From Escherichia coli (GTDB lineage: Bacteria > Pseudomonadota > Gammaproteobacteria > Enterobacterales > Enterobacteriaceae): DNA of 36,551 nucleotides. Positions 4,395 through 23,106 of this stretch are shown in pieces. The stretch's first letter is position 1; every line of letters begins with the position of its first letter. The notes beneath the pieces are model-generated. The model searched no databases. It saw only the letters and a program-made list of their open reading frames with translations, and was not told where the DNA came from. The translations under genes and the position numbers were made by a program. The stretch lies in NCBI RefSeq assembly GCF_003334765.1, contig NZ_QOWT01000037.1, one strand, 5' to 3'.

Positions 4395-5375
4395 TCACCT
4401 TTCGCGCCAAAACTGCAAAATTGCTTCTACAAACTTGTCAGAAATAATCCCCCGACGGGCTGCCGTGCTGAAATGACTGCTTCGCAGTGCCGTCGTCCAG
4501 TTCTCCGGTGACCGGTACGCTGAACCGTAATATCCCGTGCTTAAATCGTCCGGGTCTTCATCAGGCGCGTTCGTCAGTCCTCTTTCACCTTGTTGCTGGA
4601 AGTCGACGAAAATAATATTGGCTAAAACATTATTTTGATAATTGCCATAAATAACTTCATACGCATGAGGGAAATTTTCTTTCCAGTACCAGGTGGTATC
4701 GCCGCAAAACCACGGTGCGTCAGTAATATTATTAAGCTGAGAATGGTATTGTTTTAGATCCCTACGAAAGGCTTCAACCATATGATTAAAGTGTTGAGGG
4801 TGTGACGCGTAGTCACTGGTCATTAAGTCAAATTCGCCTTGCATCCAGCATACGCCGAGGAATTTGTTATGCGGATTTTTTGCCAGTGCGGCTCGCGTTC
4901 TGCTGACTAAATCCTGGTATAGCGGAGTATCCGTTCCCCAACGACAAGCATCATGGCTGGCTCCGTGCCGTTCTGAATATGTCCCTTCGCTGCCCGCGGT
5001 AAAAGCCGATCCGCCACGGCAACACGGAACGATGAGAACCCCTGCATTATCAGGAATAAAGGGCAGTAATTTCCGTGCTATATGCAGTGCCTGGCCAACG
5101 GTGCCGTACTGTGTTTGATGATTCGTTGCCAGAGGATGGTGATAACCCTGCATATCCTGAACATCGTGTGGGCAGTGAGTCAGTGGAATAATGTCGTTAA
5201 AGTGACATGACGGGCCTCCGGGATGCGTATGCGCAAATCTCGCTAATTGTTTAATTCTGGGATGAGGCGCATCTTCCCTGTCCGGTAATGGCAGTCCTTC
5301 GCCATACGCCATGGCATTAGACTGACCAGCAACGGTAAGAATATAGTAATAATCAGGCGATATTATTGCGTTCAT
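4395..5375 (-). CDS. nanS: 9-O-acetyl-N-acetylneuraminate esterase
   Basis: ORF 4395..5402 matches NanS/YjhS; start placed at the internal ATG (MNAIISPDYYYILTVAGQSNA...) for a 326-aa product. Confidence 0.9.
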   Translation of the reverse strand: MNAIISPDYYYILTVAGQSNAMAYGEGLPLPDREDAPHPRIKQLARFAHTHPGGPSCHFNDIIPLTHCPHDVQDMQGYHHPLATNHQTQYGTVGQALHIARKLLPFIPDNAGVLIVPCCRGGSAFTAGSEGTYSERHGASHDACRWGTDTPLYQDLVSRTRAALAKNPHNKFLGVCWMQGEFDLMTSDYASHPQHFNHMVEAFRRDLKQYHSQLNNITDAPWFCGDTTWYWKENFPHAYEVIYGNYQNNVLANIIFVDFQQQGERGLTNAPDEDPDDLSTGYYGSAYRSPENWTTALRSSHFSTAARRGIISDKFVEAILQFWRER

Positions 5376-5439
5376 ATAAATTTCGCGTAATTGAAATGAC
5401 AAATTGATAGCAGGGCCCCTTTACCGGGGCCCTGAAGCG

Positions 5440-6546
5440 TTAGTTTTGTACTGTGACTTTATTATCCTTCACAGAAATTAAAACTGAATCCATCACTGCT
5501 TTGCCGCCTGCAGTTTCACCGCCAATAATTAATAAACTATTATTCCAGGGCAATGATACTCCGTAGGCCCGACCTTGCGATAATTCACCCGATTTATCCC
5601 ATTTCCCGTTATACCAAAGATGAATATCAGCGCTATATGATTTTTTCAGGCCTTCATGCGCATAGTTCTTACCGTTCTGGTAATTTTCTCGTGAACCTTT
5701 GAATCCGGCCCCTCCAGCAAATATAAGAGAATCATTGCTTATCCCCGCAAAACCGCCAGCGACGCCATCTGGTGATGAGACGGGATCAAGCTTATTCCAT
5801 TTTAAATTATCACCGGTGAAGTCAAGTTCAAATACGGCATCCGTTCGCAATCCTGGTTTGGCTTCGCCATTAATAAGCCAGGTTTTATCACCTTTATTCA
5901 CAACCGCCGCACCAGCCGTTCCGTACCAGGGAGATTCGCCAGCGTAACTCCATTGCTGTGTTGAGGGATCAAAAGACAACAGAAACTTATTGAAGAAATA
6001 ATCTTCTGCTTTTTTGTCAAAATAGTAGGCGTTGATTTTATCTATAGCGGTTGAATCTTTTCCAGCTTCGTTGAGATCTTCAAAATAGCCATTGAAGATA
6101 TTCTGGTTAACACCGCCAGTAACATAAGCCTTGCCGTTGTGTACAAAAGTCACATGGCCCGCCATGCCCATCGGCGCGTGCGACATCAATTTAACCCAGC
6201 TATTGGTTTTGGGGTTGTATTTGTGTACGTCATTAAATACCTGAGTCAAGCCCTCGCTGTTTTTGCCAATGCCGCCAAACACATACAGATTGCCATCAAT
6301 AAATGCAGAGGTTGCTTGATCTCTCGGTCCGCCAGGGAATGCAGCTAACGCTGTCCATCTTTTATCTTTGGCCTGTGTATCCAGCTTGTACCATGCCGTA
6401 CCTGCGCTACCTAAACCAATGTAGACAGTGTCGTTATCAATTGCTCCGGTACCACTTTTAAATGGCACAGGAGTTTCCGGTAATACAGACGCGTTTGCGG
6501 CAAATGAAGCCATTATGATAGTAAGCGCCGTTATTGTTTTATTCAT
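5440..6546 (-). CDS. nanM: N-acetylneuraminate mutarotase (Kelch-repeat periplasmic protein)
   Basis: ORF 5440..6654 matches NanM/YjhT; start placed at MNKTITALTIIMASFAANA (signal peptide) for 368 aa. Confidence 0.9.
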   Translation of the reverse strand: MNKTITALTIIMASFAANASVLPETPVPFKSGTGAIDNDTVYIGLGSAGTAWYKLDTQAKDKRWTALAAFPGGPRDQATSAFIDGNLYVFGGIGKNSEGLTQVFNDVHKYNPKTNSWVKLMSHAPMGMAGHVTFVHNGKAYVTGGVNQNIFNGYFEDLNEAGKDSTAIDKINAYYFDKKAEDYFFNKFLLSFDPSTQQWSYAGESPWYGTAGAAVVNKGDKTWLINGEAKPGLRTDAVFELDFTGDNLKWNKLDPVSSPDGVAGGFAGISNDSLIFAGGAGFKGSRENYQNGKNYAHEGLKKSYSADIHLWYNGKWDKSGELSQGRAYGVSLPWNNSLLIIGGETAGGKAVMDSVLISVKDNKVTVQN

Positions 6547-6565
6547 TGTGACTGTCTCCTGTCTA

Positions 6566-7282
6566 CTACAGTTTAAATGACACACCAATGCGATAACTGT
6601 TTTCCGATAAATTATCTCTGCCGTTGTAAACACCCTGACGGTCAAGGTAGTCATATTCTATGTATGGCGTAATATCGGGCGTCATATGGTATTGTAGAAC
6701 AAATGCATTTTCCGTCGCCCATTTCTTATGGTTTGCATAGCGATAATCGTTCTGTTTACTGTATAGCGTCGTTTGCCATGCGAAGGTGAAATCACTATTA
6801 ATATGGTAAGTGACATATCCATCCCAACGATGAACGTTATCACGAGACATATCACCAGATAAGTCTTGTTGTCGGTAAGCTTTCCAGTCGTAACGATAGC
6901 GAATGCCAAAATTAAGATCTTTTGTCGCGTCCCAGGACAGTTTTACGTAGGGTCCGTAGCGTGTGCCATTGCTGCTAAAATGCGTTAACATTCCCGGGCG
7001 CACCGTCCATTGATCATCAAGTTTAATCGCGTAATTAACTTCAACCTGAACATCATTGAGTGCGGCATTTTCCTTTTTATTATCATGAATGGTATTCCAG
7101 GTATTACTTTCCATGCTTGCCCACCATCCATTTTGCCATCCCTCACTGACTTTGAGTCGAGTCTCATAGGCGTGGCTTCCACTACGATATCCACCACGTA
7201 CGTCCAGTGTCGCAGCCTGAGAAATTAATGGGGACGAAAAGCACAGTAATAATACGCTAGAAAGTATTTTAGCCTTTTTCAT
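6566..7282 (-). CDS. nanC: N-acetylneuraminic acid outer-membrane channel (KdgM family)
   Basis: ORF 6566..7291 matches NanC/YjhA (MKKAKILSSVLLLCFSSPLISQAATLDVRGGYRSG...); ATG at 7282 chosen, GTG at 7291 is an alternative. Confidence 0.9.
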   Translation of the reverse strand: MKKAKILSSVLLLCFSSPLISQAATLDVRGGYRSGSHAYETRLKVSEGWQNGWWASMESNTWNTIHDNKKENAALNDVQVEVNYAIKLDDQWTVRPGMLTHFSSNGTRYGPYVKLSWDATKDLNFGIRYRYDWKAYRQQDLSGDMSRDNVHRWDGYVTYHINSDFTFAWQTTLYSKQNDYRYANHKKWATENAFVLQYHMTPDITPYIEYDYLDRQGVYNGRDNLSENSYRIGVSFKL

Positions 7283-15515: not shown

Positions 15516-15524
15516 GGGGGCGTG

Positions 15525-16055
15525 ATGAGAAACAAACCTTTTTATCTTCTGTGCGCTTTTTTGTGGCTGGCGGTAAGTCACGCTTTGGCTGCGGATAGCA
15601 CGATTACTATCCGCGGCTATGTCAGAGATAACGGCTGTAGTGTGGCCGCTGAATCAACCAATTTTACTGTTGATCTGATGGAAAACGCGGCGAAGCAATT
15701 TAACAACATTGGCGCGACGACTCCTGTCGTTCCATTTCGTATTTTGCTGTCACCCTGTGGTAATGCCGTTTCTGCCGTAAAAGTTGGGTTTACCGGTGTT
15801 GCAGATAGCCACAATGCCAACCTGCTTGCACTTGAAAATACGGTGTCAGCGGTTGCGGGACTGGGAATACAGCTTCTGAATGAGCAACAAAATCAGATAC
15901 CCATTAATGCCCCATCGTCCGCGATTTCGTGGACGACCCTGACGCCGGGTAAACCAAATACGCTGAATTTTTACGCCCGGCTAATGGCGACACAGGTGCC
16001 TGTCACTGCGGGGCATATCAATGCCACGGCTACCTTCACTCTTGAATATCAGTAA
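15525..16055 (+). CDS. fimF: type 1 fimbrial minor subunit (adaptor)
   Basis: ORF 15522..16055; ATG at 15525 (MRNKPFYLL...) gives 176 aa; pilin-like C-terminus ...TFTLEYQ. Confidence 0.9.
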
Positions 16056-17665: not shown

Positions 17666-19009
17666 TTACGCTACCATGCTAATAATCAGCACAATAATCA
17701 GCCCAACCACGGAGTTGACCAGCTCCAGCAGACCCCAGGTTTTCAACGTGTCTTTTACTGACAGGTCAAAGTAACCTTTGAACAACCAGAATGAGGCATC
17801 GTTAATGTGGGTGAGGGTGTTGGAACCCGCAGCCGTCGCCAGTACTAGCAGCGCCGGATTCACGCCAACCAGCTGACCAGTTGCTGGATCAAGGATTGCT
17901 GCACTGATAATCCCGGCGGCGGTCATCGCTGAAACCACACCCTGACCCGTCGCCAGACGAATCAGTACGGTGATCAGCCATGCCATGATGTAGGGCGAGA
18001 TATTGCCGTGGGACATCAGCATGCCGATGGTGTCGCCGATGCCGGTGTCGATGATGGTCTGCTTCAGCACGCCACCTGCACCGATGATCAGAATCACCAT
18101 TGCAATGCTTTTCACCGCGCTTTCAAAAGCGTTCATTACCCACTGCATATCGTGCCCGCGCGCGGTGCCAAAGAGTACGAATGCAACCACCATCGCAATA
18201 AACATTGCAATCGGCGAGGAACCGATAAAGTTAACCACTTCCCACGCAGGGGTATCTTTTACCAGCCAGATATTGGCGATGGTGGTAGAGATCATAATGA
18301 TCGCCGGGATCAACGGCACCAGAATCGAAACGCCGAAAGAGGGCAGATTATTCATATCTACCGGTTGATCTGCTTTCAGGAATGATGGCGTTGGGCGCTC
18401 AAGATTGCCGAGGAACTTCGGCAGGATCAGACCTGCGCAGATGACACTTGGGATCGTCACCAGTACGCCATAGATATAAACCATCCCCATATCCGCGCCA
18501 TAAGCATTCACCAGCGCCACCGGACCCGGCTGCGGTGGGAACAGTGAATGTGCGGTAGTGGCAGCTGCTACTGCCGGGATCGCCAGTTTCAGGAACGGAA
18601 TTTTAGCTTCGGCGGCAATAACAATAACCAGCGGTGCTAACATGATAAAGGCCACTTCATAGAACATCGCCAGACCGAAAATCAGGCCGATGATAATCAC
18701 CGACAGCTGTACATAACGCAGACCGAGACGTGCCAGCAGCGTATGCGCTATCTGGTGAGCCGCGCCGGAGTCGACCATCAATTTACCGATGACCGCACCG
18801 AACACCACGATGATAGCCAGTTCCCCCAGCGTGTTGCCGAAGCCCGCTTTCATGGTGTGCAGCAGCGACATCAAATCCATGCCCGCCAGCATCCCGACGG
18901 ACAGCGCCGCCACCAACAAGGCCACCATTGAATTGATTTTGAACTTCAAATTCAGTACCAGCATCAGACCAATGCCGAATACCACCCAGAGAATGTTAAG
19001 CACATGCAT
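17666..19009 (-). CDS. gntP: GntP-family permease (gluconate/fructuronate transporter)
   Basis: 447-aa polytopic membrane [38 protein letters not shown]... Confidence 0.95.
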
Positions 19010-19170
19010 AACGTTTTACCTTACCTGGTTGAACCGTTGTTATTTTGGGCGACATGTTATGTAAATTGGTCAACCATTGTTGCGATGAATGTCACATCCT
19101 CTGATCAATAACCATCGATTACCTTTTGCTGCAATTTGCAGCAACAACCAGGAGAGTGAAATTCTTGTGA

Positions 19171-19186
19171 TGTGGTTAACCAATTT
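19171..19186. promoter_or_regulatory. candidate UxuR/ExuR operator
   Basis: tgtGGTTAACCaattt contains the palindromic TGGTTAACCA core resembling the UxuR/ExuR consensus (AAATTGGTATACCAATTT), about 165 bp upstream of uxuA; TTGACA follows at 19198-19203. Confidence 0.5.
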
Positions 19187-19348
19187 CAGAATTCGGGTTG
19201 ACATGTCTTACCAAAAGGTAGAACTTATACGCCATCTCATCCGATGCAACGCCACGGCTGCGGTCTGGTTGTTCATCCGGATACCTAAACAACTCCAGGG
19301 TTCCGCGTCTCTTTGCTGTGGAACCCACTATGTGAAAGAGGAAAAATC

Positions 19349-20533
19349 ATGGAACAGACCTGGCGCTGGTACGGCCCAAACGATCCGGTTTCTTTAGCTG
19401 ATGTCCGTCAGGCGGGCGCGACTGGCGTGGTTACCGCTTTGCACCATATCCCGAACGGTGAAGTATGGTCCGTAGAAGAGATCCTCAAACGCAAGGCTAT
19501 CGTTGAAGATGCAGGCCTGGTGTGGTCTGTCGTAGAAAGCGTGCCAATTCACGAAGATATCAAAACCCACACTGGCAACTATGAGCAGTGGATCGCTAAC
19601 TATCAGCAGACTCTGCGCAACCTGGCGCAGTGCGGTATTCGCACCGTGTGCTACAACTTCATGCCGGTGCTCGACTGGACCCGTACTGACCTCGAATACG
19701 TGCTGCCAGACGGCTCCAAAGCTCTGCGCTTCGACCAGATCGAATTCGCTGCATTCGAAATGCATATCCTGAAACGCCCAGGTGCGGAAGCGGATTACAC
19801 CGAAGAAGAAATTGCTCAGGCAGCTGAACGCTTCGCCACTATGAGCGACGAAGACAAAGCGCGTCTGACCCGTAACATCATTGCCGGTCTGCCGGGCGCG
19901 GAAGAAGGGTACACCCTCGACCAGTTCCGTAAGCACCTGGAGCTGTACAAAGATATCGACAAAGCCAAACTGCGCGAAAACTTTGCCGTCTTCCTGAAGG
20001 CGATTATTCCGGTTGCCGAAGAAGTTGGCGTGCGTATGGCTGTTCACCCGGACGATCCGCCGCGCCCAATCCTCGGCCTGCCGCGCATTGTTTCTACCAT
20101 TGAAGATATGCAGTGGATGGTTGATACCGTAAATAGCATGGCGAACGGTTTCACCATGTGCACCGGTTCCTACGGCGTGCGTGCTGACAACGATCTGGTT
20201 GATATGATCAAGCAGTTCGGTCCGCGTATTTACTTCACCCATCTGCGCTCCACCATGCGTGAAGATAACCCGAAAACCTTCCACGAAGCGGCGCACCTGA
20301 ACGGTGACGTTGATATGTACGAAGTGGTGAAAGCGATTGTTGAAGAAGAACACCGTCGTAAAGCGGAAGGCAAAGAAGACCTGATCCCGATGCGTCCGGA
20401 CCACGGTCATCAGATGCTGGACGACCTGAAGAAGAAAACCAACCCAGGTTACTCCGCAATTGGTCGTCTGAAAGGCCTGGCCGAAGTTCGCGGTGTCGAA
20501 CTGGCGATCCAGCGCGCTTTCTTTAGCCGTTAA
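19349..20533 (+). CDS. uxuA: D-mannonate dehydratase
   Basis: ORF 19313..20533; ATG at 19349 ([26 protein letters not shown]...) preceded by aagagga; 394 aa. Confidence 0.95.
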
Positions 20534-20613
20534 TATCCACCGGCATGGCTGCGCGCCGTGCCGGTTCCTTCTTCCTTGCCGTCACTCTCTGAAGACGGAT
20601 TCTGGAGTTTACG

Positions 20614-22074
20614 ATGACTACTATTGTTGACAGCAATCTGCCGGTTGCCCGCCCGTCATGGGATCATTCTCGTCTGGAATCACGCATTGTGCATCTCGGT
20701 TGTGGGGCGTTTCACCGTGCGCACCAGGCGCTGTACACCCATCATCTGCTGGAAAGCACCGACAGCGACTGGGGTATCTGCGAAGTTAACCTGATGCCAG
20801 GCAACGACCGCGTGCTGATCGAAAACCTGAAAAAACAGCAACTGCTGTACACCGTGGCGGAAAAAGGCGCGGAAAGCACCGAGCTGAAAATTATCGGTTC
20901 GATGAAAGAAGCGCTGCACCCGGAAATCGACGGCTGCGAAGGTATTCTCAACGCGATGGCGCGTCCGCAAACGGCGATTGTCTCTCTGACGGTCACGGAA
21001 AAAGGCTACTGCGCTGATGCGGCAAGCGGTCAACTGGATCTCAATAACCCGCTGATCAAGCACGATCTGGAAAACCCGACTGCGCCGAAGTCCGCGATTG
21101 GTTACATCGTCGAAGCCTTGCGTCTGCGTCGTGAAAAAGGGCTGAAAGCATTTACGGTGATGTCCTGCGATAACGTGCGTGAAAACGGTCATGTGGCGAA
21201 GGTCGCGGTACTGGGGCTGGCTCAGGCGCGTGACCCGCAGCTAGCGGCATGGATTGAAGAGAACGTCACCTTCCCGTGCACCATGGTTGACCGCATCGTT
21301 CCGGCGGCGACGCCAGAAACCTTACAGGAAATTGCTGACCAGCTGGGCGTTTACGACCCGTGCGCCATTGCCTGCGAACCGTTCCGTCAGTGGGTGATTG
21401 AAGATAATTTCGTTAATGGTCGCCCGGACTGGGATAAAGTGGGCGCACAGTTCGTTGCAGACGTTGTGCCGTTCGAAATGATGAAGCTGCGTATGCTGAA
21501 CGGTAGCCACTCTTTCCTGGCGTACCTCGGTTACCTCGGCGGCTATGAAACTATTGCCGACACCATGACTAACCCGGATTATCGCAAAGCGGCCTTTGCC
21601 CTGATGATGCAGGAACAAGCGCCAACGCTGTCGATGCCGGAAGGTACGGACCTGAACGCCTATGCGACGCTGCTGATCGAGCGTTTCAGCAACCCGTCTC
21701 TGCGTCACCGTACCTGGCAGATTGCGATGGACGGCAGCCAGAAGTTACCGCAGCGTCTGCTGGACCCGGTGCGTCTGCACCTGCAAAACGGCGGCAGCTG
21801 GCGTCACCTGGCGCTGGGCGTGGCTGGCTGGATGCGTTACACCCAGGGCGTGGATGAGCAGGGTAATGCCATTGACGTGGTCGACCCGATGCTGGCCGAG
21901 TTCCAGAAGATTAACGCGCAGTATCAGGGCGCAGACCGCGTGAAAGCGCTGCTAGGCCTGAGCGGTATTTTTGCCGATGATCTGCCGCAGAATGCCGACT
22001 TTGTTGGCGCGGTGACGGCGGCATATCAGCAGCTGTGCGAACGCGGTGCGCGCGAGTGTGTGGCTGCGCTGTAA
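20614..22074 (+). CDS. uxuB: D-mannonate oxidoreductase (fructuronate reductase)
   Basis: 486-aa ORF MTTIVDSNLPVARPSWDHSRLESRIVHLGCGAFHRAHQ... (mannitol dehydrogenase family). Confidence 0.95.
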   Translation: MTTIVDSNLPVARPSWDHSRLESRIVHLGCGAFHRAHQALYTHHLLESTDSDWGICEVNLMPGNDRVLIENLKKQQLLYTVAEKGAESTELKIIGSMKEALHPEIDGCEGILNAMARPQTAIVSLTVTEKGYCADAASGQLDLNNPLIKHDLENPTAPKSAIGYIVEALRLRREKGLKAFTVMSCDNVRENGHVAKVAVLGLAQARDPQLAAWIEENVTFPCTMVDRIVPAATPETLQEIADQLGVYDPCAIACEPFRQWVIEDNFVNGRPDWDKVGAQFVADVVPFEMMKLRMLNGSHSFLAYLGYLGGYETIADTMTNPDYRKAAFALMMQEQAPTLSMPEGTDLNAYATLLIERFSNPSLRHRTWQIAMDGSQKLPQRLLDPVRLHLQNGGSWRHLALGVAGWMRYTQGVDEQGNAIDVVDPMLAEFQKINAQYQGADRVKALLGLSGIFADDLPQNADFVGAVTAAYQQLCERGARECVAAL

Positions 22075-22216
22075 CTAACTGATTACCCTACAGACTTACT
22101 GGTCAATCAAACTGATATTTGGTTGACCAGTTTTCGTTTTTTTGCCCACCTGTACGTGCCAACTTCCAGTGCTAATGGTATAGTTTGAGATTAACAGGGG
22201 CCGTAAAATTGCCCGT

Positions 22217-22252
22217 TGTAGGCCGGATAAGGCGTTCACGCCGCATCCGGCA
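22217..22252. repeat. REP element
   Basis: tgtaggccggataaggcgttcacgccgcatccggca in the uxuB-uxuR intergenic region. Confidence 0.7.
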
Positions 22253-22288
22253 AAAATTTGATTAACCGCACCTAACGGACACAACACC

Positions 22289-23062
22289 ATGAAATCTGCC
22301 ACCTCTGCGCAAAGACCTTACCAGGAAGTCGGGGCGATGATCCGCGATCTGATCATAAAGACGCCGTACAATCCTGGCGAACGGCTGCCGCCGGAGCGTG
22401 AAATTGCAGAAATGCTTGATGTCACGCGGACGGTGGTACGTGAAGCGCTGATCATGCTGGAGATCAAAGGGCTGGTGGAAGTGCGCCGGGGTGCCGGTAT
22501 CTATGTTCTTGATAGCTCAGGCAGCCACAACACAGACAGTTCGGATGCCAACGTCTGTAATGATGCGGGTCCTTTTGAGCTGTTACAGGCGCGTCAGTTA
22601 CTGGAAAGTAACATCGCGGAATTTGCCGCTTTGCAGGCTACCCGCGAAGATATCGTCAAAATGCGTCAGGCATTGCAACTGGAAGAGCGTGAACTGGCTT
22701 CCAGCGCGCCGGGTAGCAGCGAAAGCGGTGATATGCAGTTCCATCTCGCCATTGCCGAAGCAACGCATAACAGCATGCTGGTGGAGTTATTCCGTCAGTC
22801 CTGGCAGTGGCGGGAAAACAATCCAATGTGGATCCAGTTGCACAGCCATCTGGATGACAGCCTGTATCGCAAAGAGTGGTTGGGCGATCACAAACAGATC
22901 CTCGCCGCGTTAATCAAAAAAGATGCCCGAGCGGCGAAGCTGGCAATGTGGCAGCATCTGGAAAACGTTAAGCAACGTCTGCTGGAATTCTCGAACGTTG
23001 ACGATATTTATTTTGACGGCTATCTGTTTGATTCATGGCCGCTGGATAAAGTCGACGTCTGA
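22289..23062 (+). CDS. uxuR: GntR-family repressor of the uxu regulon
   Basis: 257-aa ORF with an N-terminal GntR-type HTH (...ERLPPEREIAEMLDVTRTVVREALIMLEIKGLVEVRRGAGIYV...). Confidence 0.95.
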   Translation: MKSATSAQRPYQEVGAMIRDLIIKTPYNPGERLPPEREIAEMLDVTRTVVREALIMLEIKGLVEVRRGAGIYVLDSSGSHNTDSSDANVCNDAGPFELLQARQLLESNIAEFAALQATREDIVKMRQALQLEERELASSAPGSSESGDMQFHLAIAEATHNSMLVELFRQSWQWRENNPMWIQLHSHLDDSLYRKEWLGDHKQILAALIKKDARAAKLAMWQHLENVKQRLLEFSNVDDIYFDGYLFDSWPLDKVDV

Positions 23063-23075
23063 CTTATTATAATAA

Positions 23076-23106
23076 GCGCAAGGGTAAACGTTCCTTGCGC
23101 TTTCTT
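23076..23106 (+). terminator. rho-independent terminator downstream of uxuR
   Basis: GCGCAAGG-gtaaacgtt-CCTTGCGC stem-loop followed by TTTCTT. Confidence 0.65.

Follow-up and report, generated by a model that had tools for sequence, protein, structure and literature searches.

A strong terminator-like hairpin beside the uxuA stop codon in the conserved uxuA-uxuB spacer of Escherichia coli

The genes uxuA (mannonate dehydratase) and uxuB (fructuronate reductase), whose names follow the RefSeq annotation at 5,405 E. coli matches, make up a textbook hexuronate operon that matters for growth of E. coli in the gut and the urinary tract, and the leader of uxuB has already been reused as a CsrA-driven synthetic "bandpass" part. 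Between the two genes lies a GC-rich stem-loop followed by a pyrimidine-rich tract, which an earlier note made from the sequence had taken for a possible intra-operon attenuator. What might such a hairpin do in the middle of an operon? The window analysed here, i.e. the whole stretch of 36.5 kb, covers the fim-gntP-uxuA-uxuB-uxuR region of E. coli, and the parts that concern the question are the following.

19349..20533, plus strand: uxuA coding sequence (mannonate dehydratase), from the ORF list, the RefSeq annotation of matches and the 394-aa translation; stop codon TAA at 20531-20533.
20534..20613, plus strand: uxuA-uxuB intercistronic spacer, 80 nt, with signs of purifying selection across its whole length.
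20539..20565, plus strand: hairpin 1, with 5' arm 20539-20549, loop UGCGC 20550-20554 and 3' arm 20555-20565; 11 bp.
20566..20577, plus strand: pyrimidine tract UCCUUCUUCCUU, a degenerate U-tract, homologous to the Citrobacter T5-6 C T4 tract by alignment and tail scores.
20579..20598, plus strand: hairpin 2, CCGUC / GACGG with a 10-nt loop, from folding; its 3' arm runs into the GGA at 20597-20599.
20604..20616, plus strand: uxuB ribosome binding site GGAG (20604-20607) and start codon ATG (20614-20616), from the sequence and the ORF list; kept in Citrobacter.
20614..22074, plus strand: uxuB coding sequence (fructuronate reductase), from the ORF list, RefSeq annotation and translation.
22098..22131, plus strand: uxuB terminator, a hairpin followed by TTTTCGTTTTTTT, from the terminator scan; the true 3' end of the operon, used as comparison.

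The sequence reads accggca (20539-20545), a 13-nt interval (20546-20558), tgccggt (20559-20565) and tccttcttcc (20566-20575), exactly as the earlier note had it, and the GC-rich internal pairing that it mentioned proves to be complete: the stem has 11 contiguous pairs (eight G-C, two A-U and one U.G) around the 5-nt loop, and starts only 5 nt past the uxuA stop TAA, after the linker UAUCC. The folding-energy calculation that had been suggested as a check gave a minimum free energy of about -21 to -22 kcal/mol, against -12.0 +/- 2.2 kcal/mol in dinucleotide shuffles (z = -4.66), and none of 200 shuffles folded as well. In our own scan of simple uninterrupted hairpins on both strands of the whole window, hairpin 1 ranks first in stability. 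A consensus terminator scan flagged it as terminator-like in the same orientation as uxuA and uxuB, and its dimensions are those of an intrinsic-terminator stem (about 5-14 bp with a loop of 3-8 nt, on the transcribed strand and downstream of a gene). The minus strand folds less well at this site (-19.4 kcal/mol), with an interrupted stem and no T-tail. With 11 bp the stem is too short to be a likely target of RNase III.

With between 50 and 300 nt of upstream sequence, and in windows of 80-580 nt, the pair probabilities of hairpin 1 are 0.73-1.0 for all 11 pairs and 0.85-1.0 for the ten inner ones; in these contexts no competing structure involving either arm was found. Since hairpin 1 forms with high probability in every context tested, there is no antiterminator alternative and it is not a switch, and a switch-type regulated attenuator was therefore rejected. 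The label of intra-operon attenuator is thus supported in part. The structure is terminator-like and intra-operonic, as indicated by its anatomy and by the better T-tracts of Citrobacter, Enterobacter and Shimwellia described below, but it is not a regulated attenuator, having no alternative fold and belonging to no Rfam family, and it is probably weak.

Further downstream, the minimum free energy fold pairs UUCC (20572-20575) of the pyrimidine tract with the uxuB Shine-Dalgarno GGAG, at a probability of 0.4-0.7, and the weaker hairpin 2 stands just upstream of that Shine-Dalgarno sequence. The spacer has a second GGA at 20604-20606, within the GGAG at 20604-20607. CsrA binds GGA motifs, ideally those in a hairpin loop; inspection of hairpin 1 revealed no GGA motif in it, so that it is not itself a CsrA site.

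Other kinds of regulatory site were sought in the same spacer. A sigma-70 consensus scan predicted no promoter in or near it, and an internal uxuB promoter was rejected for this reason. An UxuR/ExuR operator in the E. coli spacer was likewise rejected, as there is no match to TTGGTnnACCAA-type boxes; such boxes were found at 19066-19077, 19172-19183 and 22119-22130. The uxuB terminator hairpin (22098-22131) holds an UxuR/ExuR-box-like palindrome, TTGGTTGACCAG, which resembles the boxes at 19066-19077 and 19172-19183 upstream of uxuA, and this one sequence may be both the terminator of the operon and an operator upstream of uxuR.

The weak point of hairpin 1 as a terminator is its U-tract, as had been suspected from the start. 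Intrinsic terminators call for a U-rich stretch of some 7-9 nt directly 3' of the stem, above all over its first 3-5 positions. The tail UCCUUCUU has five U in eight positions and passes the rule of the scan, but it opens with one or two U followed by CC, i.e. with C at positions 2-3, and its tail score of 3.0-3.6 compares with 4.5 for the uxuB terminator and 5.2-5.9 for Citrobacter. For hairpin 1 the d'Aubenton-Carafa index comes to 14-24, compared with 17 for the terminator of uxuB and 35-60 in Citrobacter; these values, computed with modern energy parameters, are indicative only.

Within E. coli the hairpin is strongly conserved. Queries with the 86-nt spacer and the 30-nt hairpin (11-nt words, E up to 10) found a match in 5404 of 5426 complete genomes, at a median of one place per genome, and 5070 of the 5404 (94%) carry the 30-mer over the hairpin without any change. 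Apart from a duplication in strain ACN001, the variants sampled in the E. coli spacer leave the interior of the stem untouched: T>C at 20536, before the stem begins; in strain 114, U>C at 20565, where the closing pair is lost; a 1-nt T deletion at the junction of stem and tail in strain SCPM-O-B-8794; and C/T at 20589 in the loop of hairpin 2, where K-12 has T. In ACN001 (L081, 151-241) five nucleotides, GCCGT, are duplicated in tandem within the 3' arm of hairpin 1, and this genome is the only one of the 5404 with less than 95% identity in the spacer.

A few E. coli genomes have two copies of the uxuA-uxuB junction, three of the matches are on plasmids, and the junction is absent from 21-22 of the 5426 genomes. 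In E. coli ATCC 8739 (NC_010468.1, 4091057-4096151) a deletion has fused the uxuA 3' end with mid-uxuB, the latter being annotated as a partial pseudogene, so that spacer and hairpin are gone; gntP is also absent there between fimH and uxuA.

The comparison with E. albertii gave the one result that a specialist might not expect, and one that the earlier note had missed. There is not a single difference in the 80 nt of the spacer, while 24.7% of the 4-fold degenerate sites of uxuA and uxuB differ between the two species (11.6% within 100 codons on either side of the spacer), and substitutions in the neighbouring intergenic regions amount to 10.4% (gntP-uxuA) and 9.8% (uxuB-uxuR) of positions, plus indels. 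At the measured rates of 11.6-24.7%, 9-20 changes would be expected in the spacer; the probability of none in 80 is about 1e-10 at the overall 4-fold rate and about 5e-5 at the local rate. Because the spacer is unchanged while synonymous sites and neighbouring intergenic regions diverge, the comparison indicates that the entire 80 nt, beyond hairpin 1 alone, is under purifying selection in Escherichia.

In order to see how far the arrangement extends, we surveyed one genome per species, which gave 80 uxuA loci. In 11 of these uxuA is immediately followed by uxuB (Escherichia, Citrobacter, Enterobacter sp. R1, Shimwellia, Providencia and Xenorhabdus); in the others an uxuB-like gene is divergent or absent. 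A GC-rich hairpin follows the uxuA stop codon in nine of ten tandem loci, the exception being Xenorhabdus with its 14-nt gap, and it begins 5-9 nt past the stop in close relatives and about 20 nt past it in Providencia. The hairpin sequences differ between genera, with z = -2.1 to -5.3 in most. Citrobacter has GCCGG(C/T)CA-CCTGTC-TGGCCGGC followed by T5-6 C T4; the second locus of C. youngae, a paralog, has CCGCATGG..CCATGCGG followed by T5; Enterobacter sp. R1 has a hairpin of the same type, followed by TTTCCCC (T3); and Shimwellia has GCGGGGGCC..GGCCCCCGC followed by TGTTTT. A DNA-pattern scan of metagenomes added 22 Citrobacter-type spacers, in which the stem of hairpin 1 varies only by exchanges of U.G with C-G and of A-U with G.U, and all of which keep T5-6. 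In Citrobacter sp. FP75 hairpin 2 is wholly lost, while hairpin 1 with T6 is kept directly before the ribosome binding site.

The 3' arm and the tail can be aligned across genera, CCGG-T-TCCTTCTTCC in E. coli against CCGG-C-TTTTTCCTTTTC in Citrobacter. The 5' arms fell out of register in the MAFFT alignment of E. coli with Citrobacter, and we relied instead on fold statistics for each sequence and on the pair-preserving Citrobacter variants. The hairpins of the relatives have energies of -10 to -19 kcal/mol (-13 to -16 in Citrobacter), against about -21 to -22 in E. coli. From this alignment, the energies and the tail scores it follows that Escherichia has a stronger stem and a degraded U-tract compared with its relatives.

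Hairpin 2 has a counterpart of different sequence at the same position in Citrobacter. In Citrobacter-type spacers (loci L003, L004, L006 and L087-L114) it is a palindrome, CCGTTGG-(4-5 nt)-CCAACGG; the C. werkmanii form, TTGGTATTCCAA, is similar to an UxuR/ExuR box but misses the core ACCA by one base. Judging from its sequence, the Citrobacter palindrome might be an operator inside the operon. Citrobacter youngae CCUG 30791 has three uxuA homologs (loci L004, L007 and L022), two of which are in tandem with an uxuB-like gene (UxuA 94% and 92% identical to that of E. coli); next to the third (78%), the uxuB-like gene is divergent.

Published 3'-end maps bear on the site. The TRS study of K-12 (LB and minimal medium, RNAtag-seq and term-seq) places a 3' terminus of uxuB, classed as "Primary", at 4554420, about 59 nt past the stop codon and a few nt beyond the terminator hairpin, and one of uxuR at 4555393. 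Among the rows listed in its tables there is no terminus for uxuA, consecutive rows passing from the gntP-fimH region to the uxuB terminus, and neither uxuA nor uxuB is among the entries listed in the tables of Adams et al. 2021 and TERMITe; the operon is uninduced in the media of these studies. The absence of a listed uxuA 3' end counts against an efficient terminator or a stable protected end at hairpin 1, but it is still compatible with a weak terminator, given the non-inducing media. The uxuR terminator hairpin (23074-23102) has a poor T-tail, TCTTAAATT, and a negative index by the same formula, yet its 3' end is the one mapped at 4555393, which means that hairpins with weak U-tracts can yield detectable ends in that dataset.

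The 3' half of the spacer is also, as the earlier note had overlooked, a published CsrA-binding leader. CsrA binds an uxuB "leader" defined as -100 to +100 (Rojano-Nisimura et al., bioRxiv 10.1101/2024.09.28.615595); the sequence in Table S3 of that preprint includes hairpin 1 and is identical to the window save for the K-12 variant in the loop of hairpin 2. Its GGA sites are located at -25 to -12, at the ribosome binding site and at two places in the coding region, the GGA at 20597-20599 being part of "binding pocket 1" (probe 1, nt -25 to -12) and the uxuB ribosome binding site corresponding to probe 2 (bioRxiv 10.1101/2024.09.28.615595). The segment from -25 to -12 is inaccessible without CsrA, and both activation and repression are dose-dependent; a genomic mutant without any GGA motif shows no growth phenotype on glucuronate (same preprint). 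A constitutively expressed leader-gfp fusion that contains hairpin 1 gives a GFP signal in vivo without upstream translation (same preprint), and hairpin 1 is therefore not a complete stop even in the absence of a translated gene ahead of it. The GGA sites are in the same RNA, 30-40 nt downstream of hairpin 1; in the constructs of the preprint uxuA is not translated and the spacer is taken for a 5' UTR, and hairpin 1 is neither discussed nor given a role there.

Tentatively, and at somewhat less than an even chance, we favour the reading that hairpin 1 is a leaky intercistronic hairpin of the terminator type that is masked by the ribosome finishing uxuA. In its favour are the anatomy and the orientation, a position that other genera share, with canonical T-tracts in sister taxa, and a stop codon that is always close by. 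It would descend from an intrinsic terminator between uxuA and uxuB in a uxuA-uxuB-uxuR locus of the Escherichia/Citrobacter/Enterobacter type, the stem, which starts only 5 nt past the uxuA stop, having grown very strong (11 bp) in E. coli while the U-tract decayed to UCCUUCUU. During coupled translation of uxuA, the ribosome that ends at the UAA would cover or melt the base of the stem, and with a masked stem and a poor U-tract most polymerases would continue into uxuB, uxuAB acting as one operon. When the ribosome lags, or uxuA is untranslated, hairpin 1 would form and halt a fraction of the polymerases; RNA that ends at hairpin 1, or is trimmed back to it, would be protected at its 3' end, and the net effect would be UxuA at or above the level of UxuB.

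The masking is suggested by a series of positions of the terminator tR2, which was almost fully repressed 8-9 bp past a stop codon and reached its maximum efficiency of about 0.9 beyond 30 bp, an effect attributed to the translating ribosome (Li et al., Nucleic Acids Res 2016, PMC4824070). Hairpin 1 and its close orthologs, at 5-9 nt from the stop, are within the range of near-full repression, while the uxuB terminator, which has a mapped 3' end, starts 23 nt past the uxuB stop. The tR2 series used a synthetic reporter and a strong terminator (PMC4824070), and for uxuA we infer masking from distance only.

Also in favour of a leaky terminator are the strength and rank of the stem, its z-score and its terminator flag, and an index, indicative only as above, near that of the mapped uxuB terminator. 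So are the hairpins in nine of ten tandem loci, with T5-6 in Citrobacter, T5 in the C. youngae paralog and T3 in Enterobacter sp. R1, the pair-preserving variation in the 22 Citrobacter-type spacers and the retention of hairpin 1 without hairpin 2 in FP75, together with the purifying selection on the spacer and the identity of the 30-mer among E. coli genomes. In one proteome UxuA is present at about 362 and UxuB at about 134 copies per cell (PMC6544118, table S3), numbers that are compatible with higher expression upstream than downstream and do not identify its cause; the ratio could be purely translational.

Efficient termination at hairpin 1 in E. coli is, however, unlikely, in view of the C at tail positions 2-3, the stem 5 nt past the stop, the lack of a listed uxuA 3' end and the GFP obtained from leader reporters, which points to incomplete termination even when the hairpin is unmasked. 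Moreover, a stronger stem with a weaker U-tract in Escherichia would suit a role in stability or structure at least as well, and the orthologs are few and phylogenetically related, so that their conserved position does not represent many independent events.

Internal partial intrinsic terminators of E. coli operons, such as the rplL-rpoB attenuator and rpsU-dnaG T1, have mapped 3' ends and measured efficiencies, and are expected to pass some polymerases and so to raise expression of the upstream gene. Like them, hairpin 1 is GC-rich, lies between two cistrons in the direction of the operon and is followed by a pyrimidine/U tail. It differs from the rplL-rpoB and rpsU-dnaG terminators in that its U-tract is much poorer, its stem abuts the stop codon and it has no 3' end in the K-12 tables.

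A doubtful but serious possibility is that hairpin 1 is mainly a barrier to mRNA decay that barely terminates, the two cistrons differing in half-life. After endonucleolytic cleavage or Rho-dependent termination downstream, 3'->5' exonucleases would be stopped at hairpin 1 and the uxuA segment stabilised; alternatively, cleavage in the 5-nt linker UAUCC would make hairpin 1 a protective 5' stem-loop of uxuB mRNA. Precedents are the REP hairpins of malE-malF and Rho-dependent transcripts that are trimmed back to a stem-loop. As at malE-malF, a stable stem-loop stands directly after the upstream cistron and could block 3' exonucleases and uncouple the stabilities of the cistrons, although hairpin 1, unlike the malE-malF REP, is single-copy and different in sequence. 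The stem is stronger than termination needs and stronger than its Citrobacter counterparts, with a degraded U-tract; the sequence behind the hairpin is rich in C, poor in G and weakly rut-like, and conservation implies some function. On the other hand, a stable protected 3' end should be visible by Term-seq or RNAtag-seq; the lists have none for uxuA, yet the uxuR hairpin, weaker and with a T-tract just as poor, gives one, and the T5-6 of sister genera suggests that termination was the ancestral role.

Hairpin 1 could also be a structural module of the uxuB translational leader, which we regard as unlikely. By fixing the first third of the spacer, it would leave the pyrimidine tract, hairpin 2 and two GGA motifs free for an anti-Shine-Dalgarno and CsrA-responsive fold that governs the translation of uxuB without influence from the coding RNA upstream. 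Such a role would account for the conservation of all 80 nt, of which hairpin 1 is only a part, and is in line with the UUCC-GGAG pairing and with a CsrA leader that includes hairpin 1, closes its -25 to -12 segment without CsrA and responds to dose in both directions. Against it, hairpin 1 has no GGA and no role in the preprint, FP75 retains it without hairpin 2, which suggests that it has value alone, and the genomic mutant without GGA motifs grows normally on glucuronate.

These functions may also be combined, and it is conceivable, if distinctly improbable, that the spacer is one integrated post-transcriptional module, in which a masked terminator or decay-barrier hairpin reports uxuA translation, the pyrimidine tract has a dual role as residual U-tract and anti-Shine-Dalgarno sequence, and CsrA binds the hairpin 2 and GGA sites. 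If so, the output of uxuB would be set jointly by uxuA translation and free CsrA, and the full identity of the spacer in E. coli and E. albertii would be a signature of overlapping constraints.

There is very little likelihood that hairpin 1 is a functionless relic, i.e. the decayed terminator of an ancestral gene arrangement, or a chance palindrome in a GC-rich spacer. The locus has been rearranged, uxuA and uxuB-like genes not being in tandem in most Enterobacterales, the U-tract looks eroded, and no phenotype or 3' end is known; but none of the shuffles is as stable, no change has occurred against E. albertii where 9-20 were expected, the 30-mer is identical in 94% of the 5404 genomes, and the stem changes in Citrobacter keep the pairing.

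Hairpin 1 is palindromic and GC-rich and has a genuine REP nearby, between uxuB and uxuR, but it is next to inconceivable that it is itself a REP/BIME copy or belongs to a curated RNA family, be it a riboswitch or a leader attenuator with alternative folds. The REP/BIME class, whose members recur as many dispersed copies of a shared consensus, was rejected because searches at E <= 10 with an 11-nt word still give a single place per genome, and the RNA families were rejected because there is no competing structure and the one Rfam match is sub-threshold and on the wrong strand. An Rfam 15 scan of 19000-22500 gave nothing above threshold at the spacer; the sub-threshold match is to the DnaX frameshift element, on the minus strand at 20535-20593, overlapping hairpin 1, with 24.1 bits against a gathering score of 35; it is probably an artefact, caused by a purine-rich run with a hairpin behind it.

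Intercistronic partial terminators, ribosome-masked terminators and stabilising hairpins are known kinds of element, while this particular hairpin appears to be unannotated and undiscussed. It typifies a common, poorly annotated class, that of terminator-like intercistronic hairpins beside stop codons. If hairpin 1 sets the ratio of UxuA to UxuB, or ties uxuB transcription to uxuA translation, it would add a regulatory layer to the pathway, and constructs with the -100 to +100 leader would have to account for it or could exploit it.

The REP between uxuB and uxuR is a canonical REP-type palindrome, GCCGGATAAGGCGTTCACGCCGCATCCGGC, in the intergenic segment 22221-22266, with a sub-threshold Rfam match to naRNA4 (40 bits, the gathering score being 59.5). 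E. albertii and E. coli SCPM-O-B-8794 have about 50-60 extra nt with a second REP-like unit in the uxuB-uxuR region, which is thus polymorphic for indels. Two other hairpins of about -21 kcal/mol occur in the window, one inside ORF 15522-16055 of the fim region (15586-15619) and the other at 5411-5434, a perfect bidirectional palindrome, CAGGGCCCC...GGGGCCCTG, in the 37-nt gap between the minus-strand ORFs 4395-5402 and 5440-6654.
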